Assembly: GCA_021790075.1 (NCBI GenBank)
Contig: JAJYIN010000002.1
Location: 1 to 41,352 of the forward strand
Length of the DNA: 41,352 nt
Source: Actinomycetes bacterium
GTDB taxonomy: Bacteria; Actinomycetota; Thermoleophilia; BMS3ABIN01
Reading direction: 5' to 3'
Shown here: positions 3,040 through 41,352 of the stretch, piece after piece
How positions within the stretch are numbered: the stretch's first letter is position 1
Layout of the letters: each line of letters begins with the position of its first letter
Position numbers and translations under genes: made by a program
Notes under the pieces: model-generated
Database searches by the model: none
What the model saw: only the letters and a program-made list of their open reading frames with translations
What the model was told of the DNA's origin: nothing

Positions 3040-3256
3040 TCTGGTTCCGGCATAGCTAGACCCCGCCTCGCCTTGGCGTCATCTGGTTCCTGCATGACCC
3101 CGACCCCACATCGCCTTGGCGTGAGGTTCCGGCAGGGGCGGACACAGCCTGGCGCTGGCGTAAACCCGCACCTGTTTGCGTCAAATCCGGACTACATTTG
3201 TCAGAAATATATCAAGGATTTGGGGCTTGTCAAGACGTGGGAAGGCGTGATACACT
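3021..3256 (+). repeat. Degenerate phased direct-repeat array with T(G/T)GCGTNA cores in the leader of the small peptide gene
   Basis: Cores lie at 3032-3039, 3074-3081, 3117-3124, 3156-3163, 3176-3183 and 3243-3250. The first two 33-nt units (3021-3053 and 3063-3095) differ at about 4 positions. The first three cores are spaced 42 and 43 bp apart. Confidence 0.75.
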
Positions 3257-3335
3257 TCGACCCCTCGGCGTTCTGGGTGGGGACCTCAAATCCTTGCTGA
3301 GAGTTTTTTGCACATTTGCAGAAGGGAGGATGGGG

Positions 3336-3461
3336 ATGAAGAAGAAGGCACAGTCCTACGAGAAGCCCGTGCTCGTCAAGCGCGAGAACTTGAAGGACAT
3401 CACCTTCGAGTGCCCCAACTGGCAGTGCAGCGTAGTGGTGCCGCCACCGCCGGCGCCGTAG
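3336..3461 (+). CDS. 41-aa stand-alone peptide, RiPP-precursor-like (lasso/RRE-type leader motif plus a Cys/Trp/Pro-rich tail)
   Basis: The product is MKKKAQSYEKPVLVKRENLKDITFECPNWQCSVVVPPPPAP. A strong SD AAGGGAGG (3322-3329) lies 6 nt before the ATG at 3336. An intrinsic terminator follows 25 nt after the stop. The leader fits YxxPxLx(9)T-x. Confidence 0.6.
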   Translation: MKKKAQSYEKPVLVKRENLKDITFECPNWQCSVVVPPPPAP

Positions 3462-3485: not shown

Positions 3486-3513
3486 AAAAGGACGGCCATG
3501 GCCGTCCTTTTTT
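3486..3513. terminator. Bidirectional rho-independent terminator shared by the peptide gene (+) and hemC (-)
   Basis: AAAA-GGACGGCC-AT-GGCCGTCC-TTTTTT forms a perfect 8-bp GC-rich palindromic stem. It is flanked by an A-tract and a T-tract and sits between convergent stops at 3461 and 3536. Confidence 0.85.
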
Positions 3514-3535: not shown

Positions 3536-4504
3536 TCAGGTCCAATAACCGGTATTTTCGCCTGCGGGCGCTTCCCGCACCTCGTTCAGGATCTCCTCAC
3601 CGCCGGACTCGAACATTTTCTTTCCCAATTGCTCACCCAGATTCTCCGCCAGGATGACCGGCCCCTCGATGCTGTCCCTGATGAACCTCTTGCCGTCCAG
3701 CGAGCCCAGATAAGCCCGCAGGATTAGCTTGTCCCCGGAGACAGTGGCATGGGCGCCGATCGGCACCTGGCAGCCACCTTCCAGCCAGCGCATCAAGGCG
3801 CGCTCAGCCTGCACCGCCGCCGTTGAGGCGGCGTCATCGTGAACCGTCACCAGGTCGCGGGTCGCGCCGTCCCCCTCGCGCACTTCGATAGCGATCACTC
3901 CCTGGCCGACCGCGGGAATCATCTCTTCCACGGAAAAATAGAAAGACACCTCGCTCTCACGCTCCAGCCGCTTGACGCCCGCCGCCGCCAGGATGGTGCC
4001 GTCCAGGCCGAGTTCAGCGATCTTGCGGATGCGGGTATCAACATTGCCCCTGATATCAACTATCTCCAGGTCCGGCCTCAGGGCCAGCAGCTGGGAGCGG
4101 CGGCGGAGGCTGCTGGTGCCGATGCGGGCGCCCTCGGGAAGGTCCGCCAGGCCGCCGGCCTGGCCCAGAAAAGCGTCACGTGGGTCCTCCCTGGCTCCAA
4201 GGGCCCCGATCATCAGGCCCTCCGGCAATTCAGTAGGCAGGTCCTTGGAGCTGTGGACGGCCAGGTCGATATCGCCGCTTAAGAGGGCGGTCTCGATCTC
4301 CTTGACGAAAAGCCCCTTGTCGCCGATCTCGGCCAGGGGGGAATCGAGGACCTTGTCTCCGGAAGTGGTGATCTTCTGGATCTTTACCGAAAGGTCGACG
4401 TTGTGCTTCTGCAGGGTCCAAGCCACGTGGTGCGCCTGAAACAAGGCCAGCTCGCTGCCTCTGGTTCCCAGTATGACACGCCTGGCGGCCGCTTCTTTAT
4501 TCAT
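3536..4504 (-). CDS. hemC: Hydroxymethylbilane synthase (porphobilinogen deaminase)
   Basis: The N-terminus has ILGTRGSELALFQA, with TSGDK, SSKDLP and GTSSLRR motifs. I chose the start at the ATG at 4504 (MNKEAAARRVILGTRGS), which overlaps the hemA stop by 8 nt. The longer ORF reaching 4597 is probably read-through of the frame. Confidence 0.9.
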   Translation of the reverse strand: MNKEAAARRVILGTRGSELALFQAHHVAWTLQKHNVDLSVKIQKITTSGDKVLDSPLAEIGDKGLFVKEIETALLSGDIDLAVHSSKDLPTELPEGLMIGALGAREDPRDAFLGQAGGLADLPEGARIGTSSLRRRSQLLALRPDLEIVDIRGNVDTRIRKIAELGLDGTILAAAGVKRLERESEVSFYFSVEEMIPAVGQGVIAIEVREGDGATRDLVTVHDDAASTAAVQAERALMRWLEGGCQVPIGAHATVSGDKLILRAYLGSLDGKRFIRDSIEGPVILAENLGEQLGKKMFESGGEEILNEVREAPAGENTGYWT

Positions 4505-5906
4505 CCCTGTCGCTGCCGCCGCTGCCGGCCATCTCTTCCCGGGGCCGTTCCGGTTCGCCCGCCCCGGACACTTCTTCCCGGGGAGGTTCCAGTTCATCGA
4601 CCCTGGACACTTCTTCCGTGGGCCGTGCCAGTTTCTTGTGGCCGTTCAGCTTGAACAGGCGGCGCATCGATTCCACATAAAGGTAGCCGCCGCGCTCGTT
4701 CGATGCCCGTTTCAGCTCCACCGTGGGACTGTGCAGGATCTTGTTGACGATACCCGACGCCATGGCCTCGATGCGGTTGCGGTCCTCCTCGGAGAGGTCG
4801 CCGTTGAACTTGCTGAGCGCTCTGGCCACCTCCGCCTCCTTGATCTCTTCCACCAGCTGCCGCAGAGCGGTGATGGTCGGCACCACATCCAGGCTGGAAA
4901 GCCACTGGGTGAAATTGAGCACTTCCTCGCCAATAATCTTTTCCGCCTTTTGTGCTTCCTTGCGGCGCGCTACCGCGTTGGCTTCGGCAACCTCGTTGAG
5001 ATCGTCGATGTCGTAGAGGAAGGCGTTGTAAACGTCGTTGACGCCGGGGTCGATATCACGGGGAACCGCGATGTCAATAAAGAAGATCGGCTTGTTGTGG
5101 CGCTGGCGCATGGCCTTTTCCACCTGGCCCTTGCGCAGCACGTAGTGAGGCGCGCCCGTGGAACTGATAACGATGTCCGCCAGGGGCAGGTAATCGGCAA
5201 GATCGTCGAAGCGGATGGCCTGGCCGTTGAACCTGTCCGCCATCTCTTCCGCCCGGCTGAACGTGCGGTTGCCCACCATGATGCTGGAGATGCCGTGCGA
5301 GAGCAGGTGGGTAGCGGTCAGCTCCCCCATCTTGCCGGCGCCCAGCAGCATGACGGTGCGGCCTTCCAGGTTGTCAAACACCTTTTTGGCCATCTCCACG
5401 GCTACCGACGACACCGACACGGGGTTCTCGCCGATGGCGGTTTCGGTGCGCACGCGCTTGCCCACTTCGAGGGAGTGGCGGAAAAGCCGGTTGAGGAGCA
5501 CGCTGGTGGTTTCACGGGCGTGGGCGTCGTGATAGGCCGCCTTGATCTGGCCCAGGATCTGGGCCTCGCCCACCACCAGGGAATCGAGGCTGCCGGCCAC
5601 CTTGTAAAGATGGCGGACGGCGCTCTCACCCTCGTAATAGTAAGAGCTGTCCTCCAGTTCTTCCCGGTCCACGCCGGCGAGGTGCGCCAGGGCAGCGAGC
5701 ACTTCGCGGTTGCCGGTTTCGGGGCGGGAGACAACCACGTAGATTTCGGTGCGGTTGCAGGTGGAAAGGGGAACGGCTTCCAGCACGCCGGCACTGTCCA
5801 GCAGTTTCTGGGAGAGAACCCCGCACTTCTCTCCATCAAGGGAAACCTTTTCCCGCAACTCCACGGGGGCGGTTTTATGATTTATGCCTAATACCGCGAG
5901 ATGCAT
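4497..5906 (-). CDS. hemA: Glutamyl-tRNA reductase with an unusual repetitive acidic C-terminal tail
   Basis: MHLAVLGINHKTAPVELRE, the STCNRTEIY active-site motif and the LLGAGKMGE NADPH site are all present. Confidence 0.92.
   Translation of the reverse strand: MHLAVLGINHKTAPVELREKVSLDGEKCGVLSQKLLDSAGVLEAVPLSTCNRTEIYVVVSRPETGNREVLAALAHLAGVDREELEDSSYYYEGESAVRHLYKVAGSLDSLVVGEAQILGQIKAAYHDAHARETTSVLLNRLFRHSLEVGKRVRTETAIGENPVSVSSVAVEMAKKVFDNLEGRTVMLLGAGKMGELTATHLLSHGISSIMVGNRTFSRAEEMADRFNGQAIRFDDLADYLPLADIVISSTGAPHYVLRKGQVEKAMRQRHNKPIFFIDIAVPRDIDPGVNDVYNAFLYDIDDLNEVAEANAVARRKEAQKAEKIIGEEVLNFTQWLSSLDVVPTITALRQLVEEIKEAEVARALSKFNGDLSEEDRNRIEAMASGIVNKILHSPTVELKRASNERGGYLYVESMRRLFKLNGHKKLARPTEEVSRVDELEPPREEVSGAGEPERPREEMAGSGGSDRDE
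4512..4628 (-). repeat. 3 x 39-bp in-frame tandem repeat encoding the HemA C-terminal tail
   Basis: The protein units are ARPTEEVSRVDEL / EPPREEVSGAGEP / ERPREEMAGSGGS. On the plus strand, CTTCC(C/G)(G/T)GGG recurs at about 4533, 4572 and 4611. Confidence 0.7.
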
Positions 5907-15339: not shown

Positions 15340-15819
15340 CTATTCGATGAAATACTTCATGCTGATCTTTTTGAACTCACGGCTGCTGAACAGGAGCTCA
15401 TACGCGGCGATGCCGACCTGCTGTGACAGCTCCGCCGCCATCCGGCGGCAATCTTCTTCGGATGCGCCGTGGATCATGGCAAAGAGATTGTAATCCCATT
15501 TGTCCGCCCGGGGGCGCTGGTAGCAGTGGCTGACCTCGTCGGCCGCGGCCAGGATTGCTCCGACTTCTTCGGCCCTCGCGTCCGGCACGTCCCACGCGCT
15601 CATGGCATTGGCTGTATAACCCAGCCGCTGGTGGCGCACCATGGCGCCGAAACGGCGGATGGTGCCGTCCTGCTTCCATTCCTGTACCTTTGCCACCACT
15701 TCCGCAGGTTCCATGCCTGCCTGGGCCGCGATCTCGGCAAACGGCTCGGGCGTGACCGGAATTGTTTCCTGCAGCAGACGGATCAGTTCCTGCTCTTTTT
15801 CGGAGAATATTCTATCCAT
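15340..15819 (-). CDS. Siroheme decarboxylase subunit (AhbA/AhbB, NirD/L/G/H family, Lrp/AsnC-like)
   Basis: The 159-aa product has an N-terminal wHTH (EQELIRLLQE) and a C-terminal NirD-like domain (RRFGAMVRHQRLGY.ANAMSAW). It is paired with a paralogue and overlaps it by 8 nt. Confidence 0.85.
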   Translation of the reverse strand: MDRIFSEKEQELIRLLQETIPVTPEPFAEIAAQAGMEPAEVVAKVQEWKQDGTIRRFGAMVRHQRLGYTANAMSAWDVPDARAEEVGAILAAADEVSHCYQRPRADKWDYNLFAMIHGASEEDCRRMAAELSQQVGIAAYELLFSSREFKKISMKYFIE

Positions 15820-16273
15820 CGATCACCGGCAGGTCGACCTGTATCTTGAACAGCCGCGAGGCAGGCAGGTTGATGACCGGGCCGATGCCGGCGTCGGCTT
15901 CGATCTCCCCGATGATCTCTTCAATCCGCGCCCGGCTGGGAGCGATGAGCGTGAACCAGACGTTGTAATGGTGGTTGCGCTCATAGTTGTGGGTGACATT
16001 ATGGAAGCGGTTGATCGCGGCAATGGCGGCGTCCAGTTTTTCCGGAGGCACGTGCACGGCGCAAAGGGTGCTCGTATAACCCACCTTGCGGGAATCAAAG
16101 GAAGCGCCCAGGCGCCTGATCTCACCGGACTCCATGATCGCGTTGATGCGGTCGATGACCTCCTGCTCCGGAATGCCCAGTTTCTCGCCGACGGCGGCGT
16201 AAGGGCGTTCCTCGATGGGGAAATCCGCCTGGATCAGGGTTATGAGCTTTTTGTCGGTTCCATCCATATGCAT
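15812..16273 (-). CDS. Siroheme decarboxylase subunit (AhbA/AhbB family), second paralogue
   Basis: The 153-aa product carries DKKLITLIQADFPIEERPY and IRRLGASFDSRKVGYTSTLCA motifs. Confidence 0.85.
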   Translation of the reverse strand: MHMDGTDKKLITLIQADFPIEERPYAAVGEKLGIPEQEVIDRINAIMESGEIRRLGASFDSRKVGYTSTLCAVHVPPEKLDAAIAAINRFHNVTHNYERNHHYNVWFTLIAPSRARIEEIIGEIEADAGIGPVINLPASRLFKIQVDLPVIDG

Positions 16274-16276
16274 CGT

Positions 16277-17458
16277 CTAACGAGGGCCGGCGGGAGGCAT
16301 TTTCCTCCTGGCTTTCGGCTCGTAAACACAGAAAGGCTCCTCCCCCAGATAATCCCCGGTCACCTCATAGGCCCGGGCCCGGCAGCCGCCGCAGTAGCGG
16401 CGGTACTCGCAGTAGCCGCAGCGTCCATGGTAACCGTCCAGGTCACGCATCTCCCTGAAAACGGGAGAGTCGCGCCAGACATCACCAAAACTCTGTTCCT
16501 TGAGGCTGCCGCAGTTTACATCCAGGAAACCACAGATCTGGACCACGCCCTGGTATGAGATGAAGCAGAAACCCTGCCCACCCAGGCATCCCTTGCTCAT
16601 GGCGTCCATGCCGTGCGTCTCCACCGTCACCTTCTTGCCTTCGGCGTGGGCGCGCTGGCGGAGGATGCGGTAGTAATGCGGCGCGCAGGTGGGCTTGAAG
16701 TTGAGCGGCACCGTTTCCCGCTGGTCGTAGACCCAGCCCAGCGTCTCCTCGTACTGCTCGGGGGAAAGCTCCTGGTCGGCCAGTTCCTTGCCGCGGCCGG
16801 TCGGCACCAGCAGGAATGGATGGAAGGCGACCGCGCCCAGGTCGATGGCCAGCCGCAGGATGTCCGGCAGCTCGGCCAGGTTGACTTTGGTCACGGTTGT
16901 ATTAATCTGGAACTCGATGCCTGCCTTCCTGGCGGCCTCGATGCCTCTCATCACCTCGTCGAAAGCCCCGGGCACGCGGCGGAAATCGTCATGCGTCTGC
17001 GCCGTGGCGCCATCGACGCTCAAACTGATGCGGTCGATGCCGGATTCCTTGAGGCGGCGGGCATTTTCATCACTCAGGAGGGTGCCACAGGGGGACATCA
17101 CCATTTTCAGTCCCCTGTCGGTGCCGTAACGGGCTATCTCGTAGATGTTTTCCCTCAGCATGGGATCGCCGCCGGTGAGGATGACGATAGGCTTCCCGAC
17201 CGCGGCGATCTCGTCGATCACCTGGAAGCATTTCTCGGTCGAAAGTTCACCGGGGTACGGGCCCTTGTCGGCAGCGGCGCGGCAATGGCGGCAGGAAAGA
17301 TTGCAGCTGCGCGTCACCTCCCAGGCAACCAGCCGCGGCGCGGGCGGACCGCCGGGCTTGCCGCCCGGATGCCCGTGAGGCTGGCCGCCTGCACGCCCGT
17401 GTGGATGGCCGCCGGGATGACCCTGATGTTTGCCGGCGAGCCTAGCCAATCTCCTCAT
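16277..17458 (-). CDS. ahbD: Radical SAM/SPASM haem-pathway enzyme, NirJ2/AhbD-like (haem synthase). Start uncertain, possibly up to 17530
   Basis: It has the CNLSCRHC radical-SAM cluster motif and a C-terminal Cys-rich auxiliary-cluster region (CGYCEYRRYCGGCRARA). It is adjacent to AhbA/B and AhbC. The AhbC versus AhbD assignment is tentative. Confidence 0.7.
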   Translation of the reverse strand: MRRLARLAGKHQGHPGGHPHGRAGGQPHGHPGGKPGGPPAPRLVAWEVTRSCNLSCRHCRAAADKGPYPGELSTEKCFQVIDEIAAVGKPIVILTGGDPMLRENIYEIARYGTDRGLKMVMSPCGTLLSDENARRLKESGIDRISLSVDGATAQTHDDFRRVPGAFDEVMRGIEAARKAGIEFQINTTVTKVNLAELPDILRLAIDLGAVAFHPFLLVPTGRGKELADQELSPEQYEETLGWVYDQRETVPLNFKPTCAPHYYRILRQRAHAEGKKVTVETHGMDAMSKGCLGGQGFCFISYQGVVQICGFLDVNCGSLKEQSFGDVWRDSPVFREMRDLDGYHGRCGYCEYRRYCGGCRARAYEVTGDYLGEEPFCVYEPKARRKMPPAGPR

Positions 17459-18641
17459 CCGTGAGATAGCAGGCCGGGTCGGGGGCCCAGGGATCGCCAT
17501 AAACCAGGTCGGCGCGCACGCGCAGGGCACCGCCGCAGGCGTCGAACCATTTGCAGGAGCGGCAGCGGCCGTGGATATGGCCGCGCCGGTCCTTGAGCCC
17601 CGCCATCAGCGGGTCGGAAGTGTCCATCCAGATCTCGCTGAAGGGGCGCTCGCGCACGTTGCCGAAGCTGTAGTGCATCCAGAACTGGTCCGGGTGCACG
17701 TTTCCCTTGAAGTCGATGTCACCGAAGCCGACGCCCGAGCTGTAGAGGCCGCCGCCATTCCATTTCAGCAGCCGCATGACCGCCTCGGCCCGCTCCGGGG
17801 CCTCTTCCAGTAACTTCATGTAAAGGTAGATGCCGTCGACGTGGTTGTCCACGGTGAGGATATCCTTTTCCAGGCCGCGGTCATGCATGTCCCGGGTGCG
17901 GGTCAGGATGATGTCGAGGGCATCCCGGGTTTCAGCGTGGGTGAGGTCGTCGCTCTCCTTGCCCCGGCCCGAATAAACGAGGTGATAAAAGCAGGCGCGG
18001 TCGATCTCCTCCGCCTCGATGAAGTCGAAGATGCGGTGCAGGTCGGTGTAATTGTGGCGGGTCAGGGTCAGCCTGAGGCCCACCCGCTGCCCCACCGCCT
18101 TGCAGTTGCGGAAGCCGGCCATCGCCTTCTCAAAGGCTCCCTTGTGGCCCCGGAAAGCATCGTTGATGTCGCCGATGCCGTCCAGGCTGATGCCCACGTA
18201 GGTGAAGCCGAGGTCCTTGATCCGCTGGGCCACGTCGCGGGTGATCAGGGTGCCGTTGGTAGAGAGCGTCGGCCGGATGCCCAGCGAGACGGCGTGCCCG
18301 GCCAGTTCGAAGAGGTCCTTGCGCATCAGCGGCTCGCCGCCGGAGAAGAGCAGCGCCGGGATCTGAAACCGGGCCAGGTCCTCGATGAGCGTCTTGCCCT
18401 CCTCGGTGCTGAGTTCGCCCTCGTATTTCCTGGCCTCGGAATCGGTATAGCAGTGCACGCATTTCAGGTTACAGGTGCGGCTGGTGTTCCAGGCCACCAC
18501 CGGGCGCCGCTCCGAGGCCGACTTGGGGTTGCGGGGAATGTAGGGCGCCCCCTGCATCTCCTTGCCCTTGTGGCCGTGACCATACCGCAACGAGTCGGCG
18601 GGAGTGTCCCGGTCGCAGTAGAGTCGGGTGATATCGATCAT
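17442..18641 (-). CDS. ahbC: Radical SAM/SPASM haem-pathway enzyme, NirJ1/AhbC-like (Fe-coproporphyrin III synthase)
   Basis: It begins MIDITRLYCDRDTPADSLRYGHG, carries a CNLKCVHC cluster motif, and has a C-terminal CRSCKWFDACGG motif. Confidence 0.7.
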   Translation of the reverse strand: MIDITRLYCDRDTPADSLRYGHGHKGKEMQGAPYIPRNPKSASERRPVVAWNTSRTCNLKCVHCYTDSEARKYEGELSTEEGKTLIEDLARFQIPALLFSGGEPLMRKDLFELAGHAVSLGIRPTLSTNGTLITRDVAQRIKDLGFTYVGISLDGIGDINDAFRGHKGAFEKAMAGFRNCKAVGQRVGLRLTLTRHNYTDLHRIFDFIEAEEIDRACFYHLVYSGRGKESDDLTHAETRDALDIILTRTRDMHDRGLEKDILTVDNHVDGIYLYMKLLEEAPERAEAVMRLLKWNGGGLYSSGVGFGDIDFKGNVHPDQFWMHYSFGNVRERPFSEIWMDTSDPLMAGLKDRRGHIHGRCRSCKWFDACGGALRVRADLVYGDPWAPDPACYLTDEEIG

Positions 18642-18674: not shown

Positions 18675-20222
18675 TCAGGCGCCGGCGTCGCCGGTCAGCG
18701 CCTTGACCAGCCCCGGGATTGTGTACTCATCCGCCACGATGTCAACCTTCAGGCCCAGCTCCCGGGCCGTATCGGCGGTGACGGGGCCGATGCATGCAAT
18801 CGTCACACTCGCGGGCAAAAGAGAGAAGTCGAAACCGTCGAGGAGCGCTACGAAGTTTTTGACTGTGGATGAGCTTGTAAAAGTAATGATATCAATTTCA
18901 CCGGCGCTGAGCATATGTTTCATGTCACTTGCGCCCGCGTCATCGAGCATGGTTTCGTAGGCGGTGACAACCTCCACCCGGGCGCCGGCCCCTGCCAGTT
19001 TCTCGGGCAACACTTCGCGGGCCTCCCTGGCCCTGGGGATCAGCACGCGGCTGCCTTTCACGCCCAGATCGAGCAGCCCCTCGACCACCGATTCAGCCCG
19101 GTACTCGGGCGGCACGAAATCAGGTTTGAGCCCCCGGGCCTCGAGAGCCGCCGCCGTCGCCGGGCCGATCGCCCCCAGCCTGACGCCCTTGAGGGCGCGC
19201 ACGTCACCAATCCTCTCCAGGCGGGCGAAGAAGTGGTCTACGCCGTTGACGCTGGTAAAGACGATCCACTCGTAAGCAGGTTCAGCGACGGCAACGACCT
19301 TTTCCACGGCCGCGTCCAACGCCGCGTAGCCGTCAGCGGGGGGCGCCACCCGGATGGTGGGAAACTCCACCGGCACGGCTCCCGCCTGCCTCAGCGCCTC
19401 CACCAGATCGCTGGCCTGCGCCCGCGAGCGGGTGACCACTACCTTCCTGCCGAACAGGGGCCTGTCCTCGAACCAGTGCAGCTGCTCCCGCAGGGATACA
19501 ACCTCGCCGACGATGGTGATGGCGGGCGCCTTGAACCGGCGCTCTTTGACCAGCTCGACGATGTTCGACAGGGTGCCGGTAAGGGTTTCCTGCCGCTCCG
19601 TGGTCCCCCACCGGATCAGAGCTACCGGCGTTTCCGGGGAACGGCCGTTGGCCACCAGGTTCTCGACGATATAGGGAAGATTCCTGACGCCCATCAGGAA
19701 GACCAGGGTGCCGACACCGGTGGAGATCCGGTCCCACTTGATGGTGGACTCGGCCTTGGCAGGATCCTCATGGCCGGTGATGAAGGCCACGTCCGTGGTG
19801 AGGCCGCGGTGGGTCACCGGAATACCCGCGTAGGCAGGCACCGCGTATGCCGAGGAAATACCAGGCACCACCTCGAAATCAACGCCTGCCTCCCTCAGCG
19901 CCAGGGCTTCCTCACCACCACGGCCGAAGATGAAGGAATCGCCGCCCTTGAGCCGCGTTACCACCTTCCCGGCCGACCCCAGCTCCGCCAGCAGCCGGTT
20001 GATGTCCTCCTGCTGCATGGTATGGTTGCCGCCCTTCTTCCCCACATAGATGAGCTCCACGTCCGGGCGGGCATGCGCCAGCAGCTCCTTGCTGGCAAGG
20101 TAGTCATAAACGATGGTGTCGGCTTCGCGGACGCACCGGACCCCCTTGAGGGTGAACAGGCCCGGGTCGCCAGGGCCGGCGCCAACCAGGTAAACCTTTC
20201 CCTTTAAATCGCCTGCTGTCAT
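18675..20222 (-). CDS. Fused uroporphyrinogen-III C-methyltransferase / uroporphyrinogen-III synthase (CobA-HemD)
   Basis: The N-terminal half carries VYLVGAGPGDPGLFTLKG and the SUMT core. The C-terminal half of about 250 aa is HemD-like (VVVTRSRAQASDL...FTSSSTVKNF). Confidence 0.9.
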   Translation of the reverse strand: MTAGDLKGKVYLVGAGPGDPGLFTLKGVRCVREADTIVYDYLASKELLAHARPDVELIYVGKKGGNHTMQQEDINRLLAELGSAGKVVTRLKGGDSFIFGRGGEEALALREAGVDFEVVPGISSAYAVPAYAGIPVTHRGLTTDVAFITGHEDPAKAESTIKWDRISTGVGTLVFLMGVRNLPYIVENLVANGRSPETPVALIRWGTTERQETLTGTLSNIVELVKERRFKAPAITIVGEVVSLREQLHWFEDRPLFGRKVVVTRSRAQASDLVEALRQAGAVPVEFPTIRVAPPADGYAALDAAVEKVVAVAEPAYEWIVFTSVNGVDHFFARLERIGDVRALKGVRLGAIGPATAAALEARGLKPDFVPPEYRAESVVEGLLDLGVKGSRVLIPRAREAREVLPEKLAGAGARVEVVTAYETMLDDAGASDMKHMLSAGEIDIITFTSSSTVKNFVALLDGFDFSLLPASVTIACIGPVTADTARELGLKVDIVADEYTIPGLVKALTGDAGA

Positions 20223-25712: not shown

Positions 25713-25845
25713 CACTTAATCTTTTGCATCGAAATTGTTTAGGCGCACCTGAAATGGGAATTTTCTTTGCACGAGCATCCGGGCCGGGCGCCCGCTGGTG
25801 CGGGCGGCGCCTGCGTCCTTCGACCATCGAGAATGCCATCTGCTT

Positions 25846-26838
25846 ATGCGTGTAGGAATACCCAGATCACTGCTGTACTACAAATACCTGCCCTTCTGGA
25901 AGACTTTCCTGGCCGGTTGTGGCGCCGACGTGGAAACCTCCCCCCTGACGAACAAGAAGATCCTTTCCTGGGGGGTCGAGGTGGCGGAAAACGAGCTGTG
26001 CGTGCCGGTGAAGGCCTTTTACGGGCATTGCATGGCGCTCCGCGACCGCGTGGACGCTCTGTTCGTGCCCCGGGTCGTCAGCGTCGAAGAGCGCGCCTAT
26101 ACCTGCCCCAAGTTCCTGGGCCTGCCTGACATGATCGCCGCAGTGGCAAACCAGCTGGAGCTGCCACCGCTGCTCACGCCCAAACTGAGCCAGAGGGAAA
26201 AGCCCAGCGAATTCAAGTGGGCGCTGATCAATTTTGCCCAGGACGAGTTCGGCCTCAGCAAGCTTGACGCTGTGGCGGCGCTGGACGCCGCCCGCCGGGC
26301 CCAGAAACGCTACCAGGAAAGCCTGGTGGCCGGGCACAAACCTCTGGATCTGCTCCCCGCCAGCCGCCTCAACCGCACCCGCTGGCGGCCCGAACGGACG
26401 GAAGGAGCCAAGCGCATCGGCCTCCTGGGGCACCCGTACAATATCTACGATGGTTACATCACCCAGAACCTGATCGCCCGCCTGGAGGAGACGGGCGCCG
26501 AGCTGGTGGTGCCCGAGATGACAGACCACCACGTTTTGATGAACGCCGCAACCGACGTTCCCAAGCAGCTCTACTGGACTTATGAAAAGGAGATCATGGG
26601 AGCCATCAACCACTGGACCGAAAACAGGCTGGTTGACGGAGTGGTATACGTGCTGGCTTTCGCCTGCGGCCCCGACTCGCTCGTCCAGGTGCTGATCGAA
26701 CACCGGGCCCGCCAGTACAAGGTGCCGCTGATGGCGCTGACCATCGATGAGCACAGCGGCGAGGCCGGCCTCGTCACCAGAATCGAGGCGTTCACCGACA
26801 TGTTGATGCGCAGGAAGAAGCCGGCGGCTGTAGCGTGA
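25846..26838 (+). CDS. Acyl-CoA dehydratase activase-related protein (DUF2229-type, N-terminal module)
   Basis: MRVGIPRSLLYYKYLPFWKTFLAGCG...ELCVPVKAFYGH...YTCPKFLGLPDM is the typical DUF2229 signature. I chose the start at the internal ATG that begins MRVGIPR. Confidence 0.8.
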   Translation: MRVGIPRSLLYYKYLPFWKTFLAGCGADVETSPLTNKKILSWGVEVAENELCVPVKAFYGHCMALRDRVDALFVPRVVSVEERAYTCPKFLGLPDMIAAVANQLELPPLLTPKLSQREKPSEFKWALINFAQDEFGLSKLDAVAALDAARRAQKRYQESLVAGHKPLDLLPASRLNRTRWRPERTEGAKRIGLLGHPYNIYDGYITQNLIARLEETGAELVVPEMTDHHVLMNAATDVPKQLYWTYEKEIMGAINHWTENRLVDGVVYVLAFACGPDSLVQVLIEHRARQYKVPLMALTIDEHSGEAGLVTRIEAFTDMLMRRKKPAAVA

Positions 26839-28055
26839 ACGCCCTGGCCAGGATACCCGGCAGGCGCCGCGCCGGCGCCGGCGGCGACATCAAGGTGAGC
26901 GCTCCCCACATGGGCAACATGCACCTGTTGCTGGAAGACTTGTTCGGGCGGCTGGGCTGTGAGTACGTGAAGCCGCCCCCCTCATCGATAAAAACCCTGC
27001 AGATAGGCGCAAAACATAGCCCTGAATTCGCCTGTCTGCCGTTGAAGATCAACATCGGCAACTTCATCCAGGCGCTGGACCGGGGAGCAAATACGCTGAC
27101 CATGGCCGGCGGCCACGGCCCCTGCCGCTTTGGTTATTACGGCATCGTCGAGGAGCGCATCCTGCGGGATCTGGGCTACCAGTTCGATTTCCTCATGCTG
27201 GAACCGTTCAGCGACGGCGCCCGCGCTTTTTACCGCACATTCGCCGCGCTGTCCCCGGGGCTGAGCATCCGGAAGCTGTGGAAGATCCTCAAGATGTCTT
27301 TCTCCAAAGGGCGTTCCTTTGACCACCTGCGGAAACGGGCACTGCAGGTGCGGGCCTACGAGGTCAACCGGGGCGACACCACCAAAGCGCTGAAGGCGGC
27401 GGAAGAACTGCTGGCCGGGGCCGTGTCCCCCGAGGAGATCGAGGCGGCTTCAGCCGAGGCCATGGGCATGCTCGACGGCGTCCGCCAGGACCGGGAGCGG
27501 GACGTGCTCAAGGTGGGCATCGTCGGCGAGTTCTACCTCCTGCTGGAGCCGTTCAGCAATTACGACCTGGAAGAGATACTGGGGCACGAAGGCGTCTATC
27601 TGGAGCGCACAGTCTGGGTGACTGACTGGATCGCCCCCCGGCGGGACAACAAGATTTACGGTTTCCCCAAGAAGCTGATCGAGGAAAAGGCGGCCCCGTT
27701 CCTGAACCACAACGTGGGCGGTGAAGGCCGCGAGACAGTGGGCAGCACCGTGCTCTTCGCCGAACGCGGTTTTGATGGCGTCATCCAGCTGCTGCCCTTC
27801 GGCTGCATGCCGGAGAACATCGCCACCAGCATCATTCCCCGGGTCCAGCAGCAGCATGACATCCCGGTGCTGACGCTGGCCTTTGACGAGCAGACCGGCC
27901 GCGCCGGCCTGGTCACCCGCCTGGAAGCCTTCCTCGACCTGTTGATGGCGCGCCGCGGCAGCAGGCTGGTTTCGGCTACGGGAAGCCGGGAAAAAATCAC
28001 TCAGGCTGTGACCCCCGAGTGTGCTGCCTGTGCAGCAAGAGGCGGCTGTAAATGA
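26835..28055 (+). CDS. 2-hydroxyacyl-CoA dehydratase / BCR-family related protein (second DUF2229/HGD-D-like module)
   Basis: PHMGNMHLLLEDLF...SPEFACLPLKINIGNFIQAL...GGHGPCRFGYYG...LPFGCMPE motifs are present. A GTG start overlaps the upstream stop as GTGA. Confidence 0.78.
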   Translation: MNALARIPGRRRAGAGGDIKVSAPHMGNMHLLLEDLFGRLGCEYVKPPPSSIKTLQIGAKHSPEFACLPLKINIGNFIQALDRGANTLTMAGGHGPCRFGYYGIVEERILRDLGYQFDFLMLEPFSDGARAFYRTFAALSPGLSIRKLWKILKMSFSKGRSFDHLRKRALQVRAYEVNRGDTTKALKAAEELLAGAVSPEEIEAASAEAMGMLDGVRQDRERDVLKVGIVGEFYLLLEPFSNYDLEEILGHEGVYLERTVWVTDWIAPRRDNKIYGFPKKLIEEKAAPFLNHNVGGEGRETVGSTVLFAERGFDGVIQLLPFGCMPENIATSIIPRVQQQHDIPVLTLAFDEQTGRAGLVTRLEAFLDLLMARRGSRLVSATGSREKITQAVTPECAACAARGGCK

Positions 28056-28106
28056 CGGGCGCCCTCAAGTATACGCCAGGGCGTGTCTCTGCCAATGGAG
28101 GGAAAA

Positions 28107-29123
28107 ATGACTGAAGCGACAACCAGCTATCTCGGCATCGATGTCGGGTCTGTGAGCACAAATCTGGTGATCCTGGACGAGCACGCCGCCGTGGTGGCCG
28201 CCATTTACCGCCGCACCCAGGGCCAGCCCATCAGGGCGGTCCAGGAGGGCATGAAGGAACTGCTGGAGCTGATCGCCGGCCGGAAGATAGAGATCCAGGG
28301 TGTGGGGGCGACCGGCAGCGCCCGGCACCTGACCGGCGTCATCGTGGGCGCCGACGTGGTCAAGAACGAGATCACCGCGCACGCGGTGGCCGCCTCACAG
28401 GTGGTACCCGATGTCAATACCGTCCTTGAGATCGGCGGCCAGGATTCCAAGCTGATCATCCTGCGCGACGGCGTCGTCACCGACTTCGCCATGAACTCTG
28501 TCTGCGCCGCCGGCACCGGCTCCTTCCTTGACCACCAGTCGGCGCGGCTGGGCATCCCCATCGAAGAGTTCGGCAGCTATGCCGTCAAGTCGGAAAGCCC
28601 GGCCCACATCGCCGGCCGCTGCTCCGTGTTCGCCGAATCGGACATGATCCACAAGCAGCAGGTAGGCGTGGCCACCCCCGATATCATCTATGGCCTCTGC
28701 CACGCCCTGGTGCGCAACTACCTGAACAATCTTGGCAAGGGCAAGGAGCTGCTGGAACCGATGGTGTTCCAGGGAGGCGTGGCCGCCAACGCAGGCATGA
28801 AACGCTCTTTTGAGGACGCCCTGGGAGTCGAGGTCGTGGTGCCCACCTACCATCACGTCATGGGAGCTATCGGCAGCGCCATCCTGGCCATGGAGCTGGA
28901 ACTGGAGCCGGGAGAAACCGCCTTCAAAGGATTCTCGATGAGCGACCTCGTTTACGAGACGTCCACGTTTGTATGTGACGGCTGCTCGAATACCTGCGAG
29001 GTCGTGCGCATCAAGGTGGAAGGCAAGACGCTCGCCCGCTGGGGCGGCCGCTGCGGCAAATGGGAGATGCAAGACGTTGCCGGCCGGGGAGGCCGAAGGG
29101 CGCCGGCAGCGAGCCGCGGCTGA
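28107..29123 (+). CDS. BadF/BadG/BcrA/BcrD-type ATPase (CoA-substrate-specific enzyme activase, HgdC-like)
   Basis: SYLGIDVGSVSTNLVILDE, LEIGGQDSK, CAAGTGSFLD and VFQGGVAAN motifs are present. I chose the start at the ATG at 28107, 4 nt after GGAGGG; the ORF is open from 28083. Confidence 0.88.
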   Translation: MTEATTSYLGIDVGSVSTNLVILDEHAAVVAAIYRRTQGQPIRAVQEGMKELLELIAGRKIEIQGVGATGSARHLTGVIVGADVVKNEITAHAVAASQVVPDVNTVLEIGGQDSKLIILRDGVVTDFAMNSVCAAGTGSFLDHQSARLGIPIEEFGSYAVKSESPAHIAGRCSVFAESDMIHKQQVGVATPDIIYGLCHALVRNYLNNLGKGKELLEPMVFQGGVAANAGMKRSFEDALGVEVVVPTYHHVMGAIGSAILAMELELEPGETAFKGFSMSDLVYETSTFVCDGCSNTCEVVRIKVEGKTLARWGGRCGKWEMQDVAGRGGRRAPAASRG

Positions 29124-32618: not shown

Positions 32619-33638
32619 TCAAGGAGTGGTTGCCGCCGTGGTGGCCAGCCCCCCGGCCGGCGAGGTCGACGCCCCTCCGCCCACGGGCGTGGTCGCGGGC
32701 GCATAACCGTCGGCGTACTCTATCTTGTGCCGGGCCATGGCATCCGACAGCCATTTGTCAAACACGGGCCGCTGCTTTTGCAGAAGCAGTTGTTGTTTAA
32801 GACCATCCTTCACCTCAGCAAAAGTCACCTGGTGCGGCGGGGTGATCTTGTCCACCCGAATGATGTGGTAACCGTATTGCGTCTTTACCGGCCCGGAAGT
32901 CTGCCCGGCCTGGAGCTTATCCATCGCCGCCTCGAACTCGGGAACCATGCCGCTGTTCTTGCTCGGAATCTCCGCCTGGTTCGTGGTGGGATTGTAGAGA
33001 AGCCCGCCCTTGTCCTTGCTGCCGGGATCGATGGAATACTTTGAGGCGAGCGCGGCGAAATCGGCGCCGGCGTCCAGCTGCGCTTTCACATCATTTGCGG
33101 TTTTTTCATCGGCTACGAGGATGTGGCGCACCTGGCGGGTCTCCGGGGCCTGGAAGCTGGGGTCGGACGCATGCTGATTATAGTAGTCCTGCACTTCCTG
33201 ATCGGAAACGGTGACATTCTTGGTGACCTGCTCCAGTACCTTCCGGAAATAGAGATTGTTGCGCACGAAATTCTTGTACCAGTCGAGGTCGATGCCGGCC
33301 TTGTTGAGCGCGTCCTGGAACTGGCTGTCGCCGCCGGCCGTCTGTTTTTGCTTGTCGATGGTGGAGTTGACCTCGTCATCGCTGACGGTAATGTTCATGG
33401 CCGGAGCTTCCAGCGCCAGCACCTCGTTCACCACAAGGATGTTCACGATGGAATCCTGCGGAGCCGGACTGGATGCCGACTGGCTATTGACAAGTTTGGT
33501 CATCTTGTCCAAGTCAGACTTGGTGATGTCATGGCCGTCGACGGTGGCGACGTTATCGCTGGAGCCGCAGCCCGCTGCCAGCAGGACGGCGGCGGTGACG
33601 AGCAGAGCGATGGCAAGTAGCGAGATCTTTTTTATCAT
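32619..33638 (-). CDS. Lipoprotein peptidyl-prolyl isomerase, parvulin type (PrsA/SurA-like), paralogue 1
   Basis: It has the lipobox LLAAGC, a SurA-N-like chaperone region, and a parvulin core (VRHILV...GPVKTQYGYHIIRV). Confidence 0.85.
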   Translation of the reverse strand: MIKKISLLAIALLVTAAVLLAAGCGSSDNVATVDGHDITKSDLDKMTKLVNSQSASSPAPQDSIVNILVVNEVLALEAPAMNITVSDDEVNSTIDKQKQTAGGDSQFQDALNKAGIDLDWYKNFVRNNLYFRKVLEQVTKNVTVSDQEVQDYYNQHASDPSFQAPETRQVRHILVADEKTANDVKAQLDAGADFAALASKYSIDPGSKDKGGLLYNPTTNQAEIPSKNSGMVPEFEAAMDKLQAGQTSGPVKTQYGYHIIRVDKITPPHQVTFAEVKDGLKQQLLLQKQRPVFDKWLSDAMARHKIEYADGYAPATTPVGGGASTSPAGGLATTAATTP

Positions 33639-33728
33639 CAGGTACCCCTAGTACATTTGGCGCCGTGACGGCGGCGCGCCGCTCAACCGGGCCGGAGGAC
33701 ATTGCGTTTATTTATCCATGGAGTGGTT

Positions 33729-34757
33729 CTATGGAGTGGTTGCTCCCTGTGTCTGACCGGGGGCCTGACCGGTGGCGCCTGTACCTGTTCCAGTGGTTCC
33801 GGTCTCGGTCGGCGCGTAATCGTCGCCGTACTGAACCTTGTAATTACCCTTGATGCTGTCATACCAGTTGTTAAATGCGGTTTGCTTGTTGGTCTGCTCC
33901 AGTTGCGACTTGATGTCTTCCTTGACCTGGCCGAAGGGCTGCACGCCCGCCGGGATGATCTGCGTGACGCGGATGATGTAGTAGCCGCTCTTTGTCTTCA
34001 CCGGCCCGGACGTCTGGCCGGCCTGCAGCTGATCCATGGCCGACTCGAACTCGGCGGGATAACCGCTGTTCTGGGAAGGGATCTCGCCCAGGTCGCCGCC
34101 GTTGTTCTTGCTGGAGGCGTCGGTGGAGTACTGCTTGGCCAGAGTGGCGAAGTCGCCGCCCGCGTCCAGTTGCGCTTTGACTTGATTTGCGGTAGCCTGA
34201 TCGGCGACCAGGATGGCCGAGACCTTGCGCGTCTCCGGTTTCTGGAACAGAGCCTGGTTGCTGTTGTAGTAGTTCTGGGCGTCCTGATCGCTGACCGGCG
34301 GCACGTCCTTGGTCACTTGGTCGCTCAGCTTCTGGGCAATGAGGCTGGTGCGGATGAGGTCCTTGAGACGGTCGAGCGTGAGGTTGCGTGAAGTAAGGGT
34401 CTGATTGAACTTGTCCTCGCCGCCGCTCATCTGCTTCAGCTGGTCGATCTGCTGATTGATCTCATCGTCGGTGACGGTGATTCCCCTCTTGTCGGCCTCG
34501 AACAAAACGATCTGCTGCTCGACCAGGCTCTGAACCACCTGCTTCTGGAGCTCCTTGTACTGGGGAGAATCCTGCGACGGAAAACCCTGATCGCCGTACT
34601 GTGACTTGAGATCCTCGATCCGCTTGTCCAGGTCCTCCTTGGTGATCACCTTGTCGTTGACCTGGGCCACCGCGCTTTTCGGCAGCCCGCCGCAGCCGAT
34701 CCACACGGGCACCAGGGCAAGCACGAACAAGACTGCGATCATTTTTTTAATCATCAA
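33729..34757 (-). CDS. Lipoprotein peptidyl-prolyl isomerase, parvulin type (PrsA/SurA-like), paralogue 2
   Basis: It has the lipobox VWIGC and a parvulin core (VSAILV...GPVKTKSGYYIIRV). It is collinear with paralogue 1. Confidence 0.85.
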   Translation of the reverse strand: MMIKKMIAVLFVLALVPVWIGCGGLPKSAVAQVNDKVITKEDLDKRIEDLKSQYGDQGFPSQDSPQYKELQKQVVQSLVEQQIVLFEADKRGITVTDDEINQQIDQLKQMSGGEDKFNQTLTSRNLTLDRLKDLIRTSLIAQKLSDQVTKDVPPVSDQDAQNYYNSNQALFQKPETRKVSAILVADQATANQVKAQLDAGGDFATLAKQYSTDASSKNNGGDLGEIPSQNSGYPAEFESAMDQLQAGQTSGPVKTKSGYYIIRVTQIIPAGVQPFGQVKEDIKSQLEQTNKQTAFNNWYDSIKGNYKVQYGDDYAPTETGTTGTGTGATGQAPGQTQGATTP

Positions 34758-34770
34758 ACAACTCCCGGAA

Positions 34771-38091
<3,321 letters not shown>

Positions 38092-39557: not shown

Positions 39558-40559
39558 TCAGAACAACTGGTCGTCGCCCTCGAACAGCCGGCTCACCGAC
39601 TCATCGCTGAAAACGGACTTGATCGTGTCCGCCAGGATCGAGGCGGTGGACAGAACCTTAATTTTGCTGGTCTTTTTCTCAGGATTCAAGGGGAGGGTGT
39701 CGGTAACCGCCACTTCCTCGACCTCGGATTCCTCCAGCCTTTCATAAGCCGGCCCCGAGAGCACCGCGTGCGTGGCGGTGGCGCAGACATCCCGGGCGCC
39801 CATGTTTATCAGGGCCTGGGCGCCGGCGGTGATGGTGCCGGCGGTGTCGATCATGTCGTCGACCATGATGGCGTGCTTGTCCCTGACGTCGCCGATCACT
39901 TCCATGATCTCGGCTACGTTGTGCGCCGGGCGCGTCTTGGTGAGGATGGCCAGGTCAACCGACGGGCCCAGCTTGTCGGCGAACTTCTTGGCCCGCTTGA
40001 CGCCGCCCACGTCCGGGGAGACCACCACCAGGTCCTCGGGCGCGATCTGCTTGAGGCGGAAATGCCCGGCCAGGATCGAAAGCGCCGTCATGTGATCGAC
40101 GGGGATGTTGAAAAAGCCCTGCACCTGCCCCTGGTGCAGGTCCATGGTCAGCACCCGGTCGGCCCCCGCCACCTGGAGAAGATCGGCGACCAGTTTGGCG
40201 CTGATCGGCTCGCGGCCGGCGCTCTTCTTGTCCTGGCGGCAGTAGCTGAGCCAGGGCATGACCGCGGTGATGCGGCGGGCCGAAGCCAGGCGCGCCGCCT
40301 GGATCATGATCAGGAGCTCCATCAGGTTGTCGTTCACCGGGCCGGAGGTGGACTGGATCAGGAAGACGTCGCTGCCGCGGATGTTTTCCCGGTAACGCAC
40401 GTAGACCTCGCCGTTGCTGAAGGTCTTGATCTCGATGTCTCCCAGCGAGATCTCCATCTTCTCGGCGATCTTCTCACCCAGATCCGGCACGCTGCGGCCG
40501 CAAAAAACCATCAGGCGCTTGTGTTTCGGGGTCAGGAAACTGCTCGGGGCCATGTTCAC
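39558..40559 (-). CDS. prs: Ribose-phosphate pyrophosphokinase
   Basis: DLHQGQVQGFF, VVSPDVGGVKRA and VDDMIDTAGT motifs are present. Confidence 0.95.
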   Translation of the reverse strand: MNMAPSSFLTPKHKRLMVFCGRSVPDLGEKIAEKMEISLGDIEIKTFSNGEVYVRYRENIRGSDVFLIQSTSGPVNDNLMELLIMIQAARLASARRITAVMPWLSYCRQDKKSAGREPISAKLVADLLQVAGADRVLTMDLHQGQVQGFFNIPVDHMTALSILAGHFRLKQIAPEDLVVVSPDVGGVKRAKKFADKLGPSVDLAILTKTRPAHNVAEIMEVIGDVRDKHAIMVDDMIDTAGTITAGAQALINMGARDVCATATHAVLSGPAYERLEESEVEEVAVTDTLPLNPEKKTSKIKVLSTASILADTIKSVFSDESVSRLFEGDDQLF

Positions 40560-40587
40560 TCCTCTTAAACTTTGTCAAGTAACGGAA

Positions 40588-41352
40588 TTACGGTTTCCCC
40601 TCTTTTTCCTTGCCGGAAAACTTCTTCCGGGCGTATCCCTCGATATTCCGCTGGCGGGCTCTGGCGATGCCCAGCGCGTCCGCGGGCACGTCGCCGGTGA
40701 TCACCGAACCGGCGCCCGTCATGGAGCCGTCTCCCACCTTGACCGGCGCCACGAACACCGTGCCGGCCCCCGTGTGCACCCGGTCGCCGATCTCCGTGCG
40801 GTACTTGCGGATACCGTCGTAGTTGGCGGTGATATTGCCGGCCCCGATATTGGTGTCTTTCCCGATGGCGGTGTCGCCCACATAACTCAGATGCGGCACC
40901 TTGCTGCCCGCCCCCACCGAGCTGTTTTTGATCTCCACGAAGGCGCCGGCCTTGGCGCCCTCTTCCAGATGGGCTCCCGGACGCAGATACGCGAACGGGC
41001 CCACGTTGCAGCCGCTGCCGATCCGGGCGCCGCTGACGTAAGACGAAACCAGGCTGACGCCGTCGTCGATGACCGTATCGATGACCGTGGACGAGGGACC
41101 GATGACGCAGTTCTCGCCCACCGACGTGGAGCCCGACAGCATGGTCATCGGCTCCAGAACCGTGTCGCGGCCGATGGTTACCCCCGCCTCCACGTAAGTG
41201 GTCTCCGGATCGGTCACAGTGACGCCCTGGAGCATGTGGCGCTCCAGAACCCGGCGCCGCATCACAGCTCCCGCCCGGGCCAGGTCCGCGCGCGAATTGA
41301 CGCCGATGACAGCCTCCGGATCATCCACCTGTTGGGCCAGCACCGCCAGGCC
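40588..41352 (-). CDS. glmU: Bifunctional GlmU, C-terminal acetyltransferase (left-handed beta-helix) portion. The 5' part lies outside the window
   Basis: It shows hexapeptide repeats and NYDGIRKYRTEIGDRVHTGAG. The frame stays open to the window edge. Confidence 0.9.
   Translation of the reverse strand, partial: GLAVLAQQVDDPEAVIGVNSRADLARAGAVMRRRVLERHMLQGVTVTDPETTYVEAGVTIGRDTVLEPMTMLSGSTSVGENCVIGPSSTVIDTVIDDGVSLVSSYVSGARIGSGCNVGPFAYLRPGAHLEEGAKAGAFVEIKNSSVGAGSKVPHLSYVGDTAIGKDTNIGAGNITANYDGIRKYRTEIGDRVHTGAGTVFVAPVKVGDGSMTGAGSVITGDVPADALGIARARQRNIEGYARKKFSGKEKEGKP

Follow-up and report, generated by a model that had tools for sequence, protein, structure and literature searches.

A family of actinobacterial peptides with a lasso-type leader, a conserved non-lasso core and exoprotein genes as neighbours

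We have analyzed a short gene in a stretch of 41,352 nucleotides from an Actinomycetes bacterium (contig JAJYIN010000002.1), which we refer to as the window. The 41-residue product of this gene is best described as belonging to a family of peptides derived from lasso leaders, in which both the core and the genomic logic are new. The peptide belongs to an undescribed multi-copy family confined, within the reach of our searches, to an uncultured Thermoleophilia/Gaiellales-like actinobacterial lineage. The features of the gene are collected in Table 1.

Table 1. Positions in the window of the peptide gene, its parts and its expression signals.
Feature	Position	Strand	Description
Palindrome, operator-like	3187-3205		CGGAC-N7-GTCAG, 5' of the promoter, ~22 nt before the -35
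Promoter, sigma-70 type	3227-3256	+	-35 TTGTCA 3227-3232, N18 spacer, TG 3248-3249, -10 TACACT 3251-3256
Shine-Dalgarno	3324-3329	+	GGGAGG, read directly; ATG 6 nt further on
Peptide ORF	3336-3461	+	ATG 3336, TAG 3459-3461; 41-residue product MKKKAQSYEKPVLVKRENLKDITFECPNWQCSVVVPPPPAP
Leader-like part	3336-3407	+	Residues 1-24, MKKKAQSYEKPVLVKRENLKDITF; Y8, P11, L13, T23 in lasso leader register
Core-like part	3408-3461	+	Residues 25-41, ECPNWQCSVVVPPPPAP, plus stop TAG 3459-3461; CxxxxC loop around Trp, Cys-Ser, Val strand, polyproline tail
Intrinsic terminator hairpin	3486-3513		A4, 8-bp GC-rich stem, T6; common to convergent hemC

The gene and its family

By the conservation of its signals, the ORF is a real gene, independently transcribed, with its own promoter and terminator. 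We consider it real because it is called and conserved in public assemblies (the exact 41-residue gene is found on two contigs), because it is under purifying selection at the protein level, and because promoter, Shine-Dalgarno sequence and terminator are kept in 10 loci. These are orthologous stand-alone copies in 10 genomes, convergent with hemC at the end of a hemC-hemA-cysG(N)-ccsA-resB operon. The initial annotation had described a self-contained gene with a Shine-Dalgarno sequence at a spacing of 6 nt: these signals are present and have been retained in the 10 genomes.

The promoter scan gives 9 of 12 matches plus the TG, and an alignment of the 10 orthologous loci keeps both TTGTCAA and GTGATA..CTT, the conserved -35 and extended -10. 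The palindrome has the consensus CTGAC-N7/8-GTCAG and is found in the same place in the other aligned orthologous loci, which suggests a putative regulator binding site. The region from Shine-Dalgarno to start (GGAGGGAGG..GGGGATG) presents no variation among the 10 orthologues. We place the start at 3336 because another in-frame ATG, at 3330, is not conserved. The 5'UTR of the peptide gene has no consensus fold across orthologues and folds no better than shuffled sequences, and an Rfam search of the window gave no match. A riboswitch or leader RNA upstream of the peptide was rejected for these reasons.

The arms of the terminator hairpin, GGACGGCC and GGCCGTCC, are found at 3490-3507, between A4 and T6. 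The fold of this region has an energy of -28.3 kcal/mol (z = -4.0) which none of 200 shuffles equalled, and its stem is maintained by compensatory changes across the 10 orthologues. A consensus terminator scanner did not list the site 3490-3507. A perfect bidirectional terminator had been claimed here; the hairpin and its T6 bear this out on the plus strand, but the run on the minus strand has just 4 T, so the claim is only partly true. The convergent hemC ORF (3536-4597, minus strand) has a possible start 31 codons upstream of the public call, which would give 353 instead of 322 residues. Its Arg/Pro/Ala-rich N-terminal extension is probably not translated.

The gene had been taken for an orphan, which it is not: The family is found in ~25 MAGs, several genomes contain 5-8 copies, and the maximum is eight. 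With a word-indexed search we obtained 31 homologues, 38-63 residues long; those with a name are all called "hypothetical protein" and come from Thermoleophilia MAGs. A scan with one genome per species gave 76 loci, in MAGs labelled Thermoleophilia, Gaiellales, Actinomycetes or Actinomycetota, and one extra match in a 1.9-kb contig binned as Dehalococcoidia. MAGs with the peptide include GCA_054606915.1, GCA_054606475.1, GCA_024275795.1 and BDUA01, and the source habitats are groundwater and the subsurface. A HMMER search of 1.84 billion cluster representatives gave 44 matches at E <= 0.001, mostly peptides of 37-85 residues, and a broader metagenome scan seeded with a sequence pair led to one locus. 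Within the window the gene is single: Neither a motif scan nor the HMM detected a second copy. The peptide has no match in Pfam or NCBIfam, even at E <= 10, nor in a sequence profile search of the PDB. In the literature that we searched, we have found no occurrence of the core strings WQCSV and CPNWQC; ITFEC leads only to unrelated text. Some long proteins cluster with the peptides (P0074, P0120, P0032) and were considered as natural fusions, or Rosetta stones; they are artefacts or repeats.

Paralogues in the same genome differ synonymously at 29% and non-synonymously at 6% of their core codons, the corresponding values for leader codons being 27% and 32%. The large excess of synonymous differences in the core means that conservation takes place at the protein level and does not reflect a DNA repeat. 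A spurious ORF or a DNA repeat was rejected on these grounds, together with the conserved expression signals. The two variable residues in the C-x-x-W-x-C loop (PN, PQ, PA, SG, AN, PD) are mostly genome-specific across paralogues. The simplest explanation for such matching within a genome would be a partner common to all copies there; gene conversion confined to those codons could also account for it.

Leader and core of the peptide

The initial annotation had recognized a lasso/RRE-type leader motif in the peptide. By itself, such a motif in a single ORF would not be significant. Our family-wide conservation counts are based on 35 representatives: Y8 is invariant in them, P11, L13, N18 and T23 reach a conservation of 90% or more, and Tyr, Pro, Leu and Thr fall exactly onto the columns of YxxPxLxxxGxxxxxTx. 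This is the conserved leader of actinobacterial lasso precursors, where the RRE binds Tyr-x-x-Pro and Leu, and the penultimate Thr, with Ile as a rare known variant, is required for cleavage (PMC6856326, PMC6784204, PMC10368454). Since the residues of the motif are precisely the conserved columns of the family, the match is not due to chance: The motif is the functional signature by which the family is recognized. The peptide has both elements which characterize a lasso-precursor leader, YxxPxL and a penultimate Thr (rarely Ile). Position 10 of the motif is Glu in the window peptide and Gly in divergent members, one of which has Ile at -2.

The core, if the leader ends at F24, has the CxxxxC around a Trp and the proline tail that had been described. 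Its positions 7-9 are C, S and V (ECPNWQCSV...). In a lasso macrolactam, the N-terminal amine of the core is closed onto an acidic residue, Asp or Glu, at one of positions 7-9 (PMC9266682). None of the 35 representatives has Asp or Glu at these positions, so a lasso macrolactam is impossible, as had been concluded from the single sequence, and the peptide is not a lasso peptide.

In the alignment of close homologues the C-terminal ITFECPNWQCSVxVPPPP is almost invariant, while the N-terminus is variable. Among 32 close homologues there is no variation at E25, C26, P27, W29, Q30, C31, S32, V33, V35 and P37-39. A leader more conserved than the core had been proposed as a check, in line with the general pattern of RiPPs, a conserved leader and a variable core. 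The main clade presents the reverse: Conservation is much stronger in the core than in the leader, and the core diverges, with the leader retained, only across distant members. These divergent members have variable cores rich in Asp, Gly and His, without polyproline, yet they retain the leader and Cys-Ser; Glu25 and Cys26 are not conserved in them.

S32 is invariant in the 35 representatives. C31-S32 occupy core positions 7-8 in 31 of them (C31 is at least 90% conserved), and exactly two core Cys are present in 31 of the 35. The position of the partner of C31 is variable, ranging from 2-5 residues upstream to many positions downstream. A conserved pair of Cys with a mobile partner suggests a disulfide and, with it, a product located outside the cell. 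No signal peptide is found on the 41-residue peptide. AlphaFold2 gives the peptide alone no secondary structure: According to this model, it is intrinsically unstructured when alone.

Compared with actinobacterial lasso precursors of the LasA type, the peptide has the same register of Tyr, Pro, Leu and penultimate Thr, with Gly at motif position 10 in its divergent members (PMC6856326, PMC6784204). Total length is similar, the host phylum is also Actinomycetota, and an HPr-kinase homologue is associated with both (PMC8498205). The differences are the Cys-Ser in place of an acidic residue at core 7-8, the absence of B1, B2 and C genes near the peptide copies in the window and in related loci, a core more conserved than the leader, the multiple copies and the pairing with exoprotein genes.

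The profile of the family also matches eukaryotic or eukaryote-like FN3-repeat proteins (P0050 and P0070) at every repeat junction (YTKPEVVRNLNVTEITT), which is probably a convergence of beta-strand-forming sequence. It follows from these matches that the leader resembles the first strand of an FN3 domain, a likeness which hints that the leader may bind by beta-strand addition.

Partner genes, the master locus and the search for maturases

When genes were called and clustered in all loci, the largest cluster of neighbours was found immediately 5' of the peptide gene and in the same orientation. The N-terminal parts of these partner proteins are unrelated: rhodanese, EB_dh haem domain, multihaem cytochrome c, YVTN beta-propeller, FN3-like and GH26. 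All of them have Sec-type N-termini, and they have in common a C-terminal domain of ~110 residues, which ends in Y-T-Y-P-G-P-x-P. HMMs detected 71 domain-bearing ORFs, 67 of which have a peptide gene 5-92 nt downstream, a biased count, as the loci were fetched through the peptide. Two more have a peptide gene just upstream, and at least eight domain-peptide pairs are independent of the seed that fetched their locus. From this arrangement, most peptide copies are translationally linked to secreted proteins with a common C-terminal Ig-like domain. The proteins retrieved with the domain are "hypothetical proteins" from Thermoleophilia or Actinobacteria, and the domain has no match among PDB sequences.

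A minimal domain protein, with only a signal anchor and the domain (153 residues), was modelled as an eight-strand beta-sandwich, with a mean pLDDT of 85 for the whole model. Its Foldseek neighbours are weak: TRAP-beta, the gamma-adaptin ear and Ig-like domains of glycosidases, with a best E of 2.5e-3. The modelled sandwich is complete and would therefore not need a donated strand, so donor-strand complementation of an incomplete Ig fold is not favoured. Read-through of the stop codon, which would fuse the peptide to the upstream protein, was also rejected: The two genes are in the same frame only in some cassettes (L003, L010, L023), and in other frames in L004 and L006. In locus L004 (9486-11831), as well as in L056, L077, L083 and L073, the minimal domain protein and the peptide are followed by tatA-tatB-tatC, a row conserved in at least five genomes.

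Twelve genomes contain what may be called a master locus, with the order hemL-hemB ... SurA-like PPIase, domain protein, peptide, lipoprotein, a protein of ~345 residues, domain protein and peptide. A second peptide is sometimes found after the first domain protein-peptide pair, and housekeeping genes follow the locus. The nearest NCBIfam family of the ~345-residue protein is HprK-related kinase A (TIGR04352), with E values from 3e-17 to 4e-18 and scores of 63-66 bits, far under the cut-off of 200. Its P-loop is kept, and HPr kinase structures are matched only around it. The gene lies between cassettes in the 12 genomes and is absent from the window. HprK-related kinase A is associated with a chaperone of the PqqD family, but no PqqD neighbour is found here. 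In this best match and its P-loop it is like the HPr-kinase homologues of lasso clusters (PadeK, ThcoK), which phosphorylate a Ser of the linear precursor (PMC8498205, PMC9266682). By analogy, Ser32 may be a candidate phosphorylation site for this HPr-kinase-like protein. A difference is that the known enzymes phosphorylate a C-terminal Ser, whereas the only invariant Ser of the peptide is internal.

The lipoprotein has ~180 residues, with a signal peptide, a GCG lipobox, a Gly/Ser/Thr linker and the end ...GGW-x(3-5)-[IV]x[IV]VPPxP. Among the 1041 proteins of the fetched loci, the tail [IV]x[IV]PPxP is found only in the peptides and in the lipoprotein, where 6 of the 8 copies called have it. 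This extracytoplasmic protein therefore displays a tethered copy of the tail of the peptide.

HMMs for the C-terminal domain, the kinase and the lipoprotein detected no such protein in the window; apart from the one peptide, the motif and HMM scans led only to two SurA-like PPIases. Its right end (32619-38091 and 39558-41352) contains GlmU-Prs-L25-Pth-Mfd and the two PPIases, SurA/PrsA-like and in tandem. In other genomes this row of genes flanks the master locus, so the locus may lie just beyond the window, ~9 kb past its right end.

All genes of the window were scanned against Pfam or NCBIfam, and none codes for an RRE/PqqD protein, lasso B or C protein, YcaO protein or peptidase. This agrees with the initial annotation, which had seen no lasso cyclase, protease or RRE gene in the window and had placed any maturase elsewhere; the RRE-dependent modification that it had proposed is, accordingly, hypothetical. 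The same is found in ~90 related loci (+/-10 kb around the matches), where no RRE/PqqD, lasso B or C, YcaO, radical SAM maturase, leader peptidase or dedicated exporter adjoins any copy, and no maturase adjoins the divergent members in the contexts P0045, P0049, P0060, P0061, P0065, P0066 and L091. The window has a single radical SAM/SPASM gene (17442-18641). Its product is AhbC/NirJ1-like (E 1e-160 or better) and its gene adjoins AhbA/AhbB, so it belongs to haem synthesis and was rejected as a maturase of the peptide.

Two of the divergent peptides, with Asp/Gly/His-rich cores, have a ferredoxin reductase, a MacB-type ABC exporter and an unannotated protein of 353 residues in their vicinity (L085, 10001-15965; L091, 3742-9794). 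These are related loci of one divergent subfamily, with the exporter ~4.5 kb from the peptide; L085 also contains a Rieske ferredoxin and a DUF2769 protein. The genes around these two peptides could be maturation or export genes, or could reflect plain synteny.

Between 3536 and 20222, the window has a cluster of genes for the siroheme-dependent (Ahb) pathway of haem synthesis and for the maturation of cytochrome c by system II. Apart from the AhbC/NirJ1-like gene, it includes hemC, hemA, the N-domain of cysG, ccsA, resB, NHL-repeat and TPR proteins, a multihaem cytochrome, AhbB/AhbA (15340-16273) and a CobA-HemD fusion (18675-20222). The rest of the window adds housekeeping genes. Two DUF2229/HgdD-like proteins followed by a BcrAD/BadFG-type ATPase (25798-29123) form a set similar to 2-hydroxyacyl-CoA dehydratases with their activase.

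Possible roles of the peptide

The reading that we tentatively prefer, to which we would give somewhat less than an even chance, is a leader-processed, exported, disulfide-looped peptide that partners with the C-terminal domain of the exoproteins. Residues 1-24 would be a lasso-type recognition and cleavage leader (YxxPxL and Thr at -2), inherited from lasso precursors, which would be removed, and the product exported, by machinery encoded elsewhere. The functional product would be residues 25-41: a two-Cys loop around the Trp, probably a disulfide, followed by Cys-Ser, a short beta-strand and a proline tail. This 17-mer would act as a dedicated 1:1 partner (ligand, cap or anchor) of the Ig-like domain of Sec-exported proteins. 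The proteins with this domain would include rhodanese, haem-binding, multihaem cytochrome, beta-propeller, FN3 and glycosidase proteins, each gene having its own peptide copy directly downstream. The lipoprotein, with its ...W...VxVPPxP tail, would engage the same site of the domain, and the HPr-kinase-like enzyme would phosphorylate Ser32. We favour an exported product because 31 of the 35 representatives keep two core Cys and because the lipoprotein has the same tail. We favour a partner role because of the 67/71 pairing, the Sec-type N-termini of all the domain proteins and the confident beta-sandwich. The points against are that no maturase or exporter lies nearby, that the peptide has no signal peptide, that the sandwich of the domain is complete and that the match of the kinase is below the cut-off.

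QhpC, the cross-linked gamma subunit of quinohaemoprotein amine dehydrogenase, bears a leader, is modified in the cytoplasm, is exported independently of Sec and is assembled outside the cell with Sec-exported cytochrome and beta-propeller subunits. By analogy, it would be the best precedent for the route that we propose for the peptide. The two cases differ in that no QhpD, QhpE, QhpF or QhpG homologues are found near the peptide, which is also much shorter, and in that the peptide would pair not with one enzyme but with a generic C-terminal Ig-like domain, which is found on numerous unrelated cargoes. A wider reading, which we consider rather unlikely, would make the peptide the universal small component of an unrecognised exoprotein-display system of Thermoleophilia-type actinobacteria. 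The leader would derive from lasso precursors and direct cleavage, export would be Sec-independent, the disulfide-looped 17-mer would dock 1:1 onto the Ig-like domain of diverse secreted enzymes and cytochromes, the lipoprotein would tether through the same site, and the kinase would exert control through Ser32: a lasso-type RiPP pathway repurposed for cell-surface assembly.

The peptide might instead remain in the cytoplasm. As an adaptor or chaperone, the unprocessed 41-mer would bind the C-terminal domain or the nascent precursor, keeping the exoprotein export-competent or timing its folding, in the manner of the effector-specific chaperones and adaptors encoded beside each effector in specialised secretion systems. 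The C-terminal sorting domains of type IX secretion (CTD) and the effector-adaptor pairs of type VI (Eag) and type VII (Lap) may be compared with our loci: As in these, one C-terminal beta-sandwich is found on many unrelated cargoes, with a small partner gene beside each. The lack of a signal peptide, the 1:1 gene pairing with short intergenic gaps, the disorder of the isolated peptide in AlphaFold2 and the lack of a maturase or exporter nearby would all agree with an adaptor role. Our loci differ from the secretion systems named above in that there is no sequence match and no significant structural match to these, and in that the partner is a 41-residue RiPP-like peptide. The cargoes, moreover, have ordinary Sec signals, Sec export normally taking place without dedicated partners. 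The conserved Cys pair, and an extracytoplasmic lipoprotein with the same tail, point outside the cell; a lasso leader in exact register, with Thr at -2, would be left without a role, and stand-alone copies of the peptide are conserved. We regard an adaptor as improbable, about on a par with the display system. A regulatory small ORF, in which the polyproline before the stop would form a ribosome-arrest or EF-P-sensing peptide controlling its neighbours, is far less probable still. The stop codon is indeed closely preceded by PPPP, and known arrest peptides may have a spacing similar to its F-x4-W. Nevertheless, the copy in the window has a terminator and a convergent gene after it, with nothing downstream to control, copies in cassettes lie downstream of their partners, while an arrest ORF would be upstream of the gene that it regulates and co-transcribed with it, and divergent members without polyproline keep the leader and Cys-Ser.

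There is a small chance that the peptide is an ordinary secreted RiPP, antimicrobial or signalling, matured by a distant cluster, its adjacency to exoproteins being a matter of co-regulation only. Its lasso-type leader, the variable Asp/Gly/His-rich cores of divergent members and the MacB-type exporter in two loci are consistent with this. However, the near-invariant core of the main clade, more conserved than its leader, does not fit a diversifying natural product, and neither do up to 8 copies per genome with almost the same product, nor the tight link to one protein domain in 67 of 71 cases. A similarly low probability may be given to the precursor of a cross-linked redox cofactor or a small catalytic subunit (Cys-Trp, Cys-Glu), in the manner of PqqA, MftA or QhpC, which would be delivered 1:1 to extracellular redox proteins. 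PqqA and MftA, the precursors of PQQ and mycofactocin, are likewise small peptides: Their core is conserved, a PqqD-type chaperone binds their leader, and their genes are sometimes present in more than one copy. In the peptide, E-C-x-x-W-Q-C-S is invariant in close homologues, near-identical cores occur in multiple copies, and many cargoes or neighbours are related to redox processes: multihaem cytochrome, EB_dh haem domain, rhodanese, thioredoxin/TrxB, haem and cytochrome c biogenesis. Against this reading, no copy has a radical SAM/SPASM (PqqE/MftC-type), flavoprotein or PqqD/MftB gene beside it, the AhbC/NirJ1-like protein is the sole candidate of its class in the window, and NCBIfam and Pfam do not place the peptide with PqqA or MftA. 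In addition, Glu25 and Cys26 are lost in divergent members, and some cargoes (GH26, FN3, beta-propeller) are not redox proteins.

In summary, since both the core and the gene clusters differ from those of lasso peptides, the peptide should not be filed as one. RiPP leaders are regarded as handles for the diversification of natural products; here a lasso-type leader is found on a near-invariant core which is not a lasso core. Even if the mechanism that we propose is wrong, the family is a clear example, open to testing, of how annotation pipelines overlook a conserved small protein or leave it without a name. If the proposed role is true, three new families, all of them "hypothetical" now, would be defined: the peptide, the C-terminal domain and the tail-mimic lipoprotein. 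A RiPP recognition system would then have been recruited for the housekeeping assembly or anchoring of exoproteins in a poorly known group of uncultured actinobacteria.
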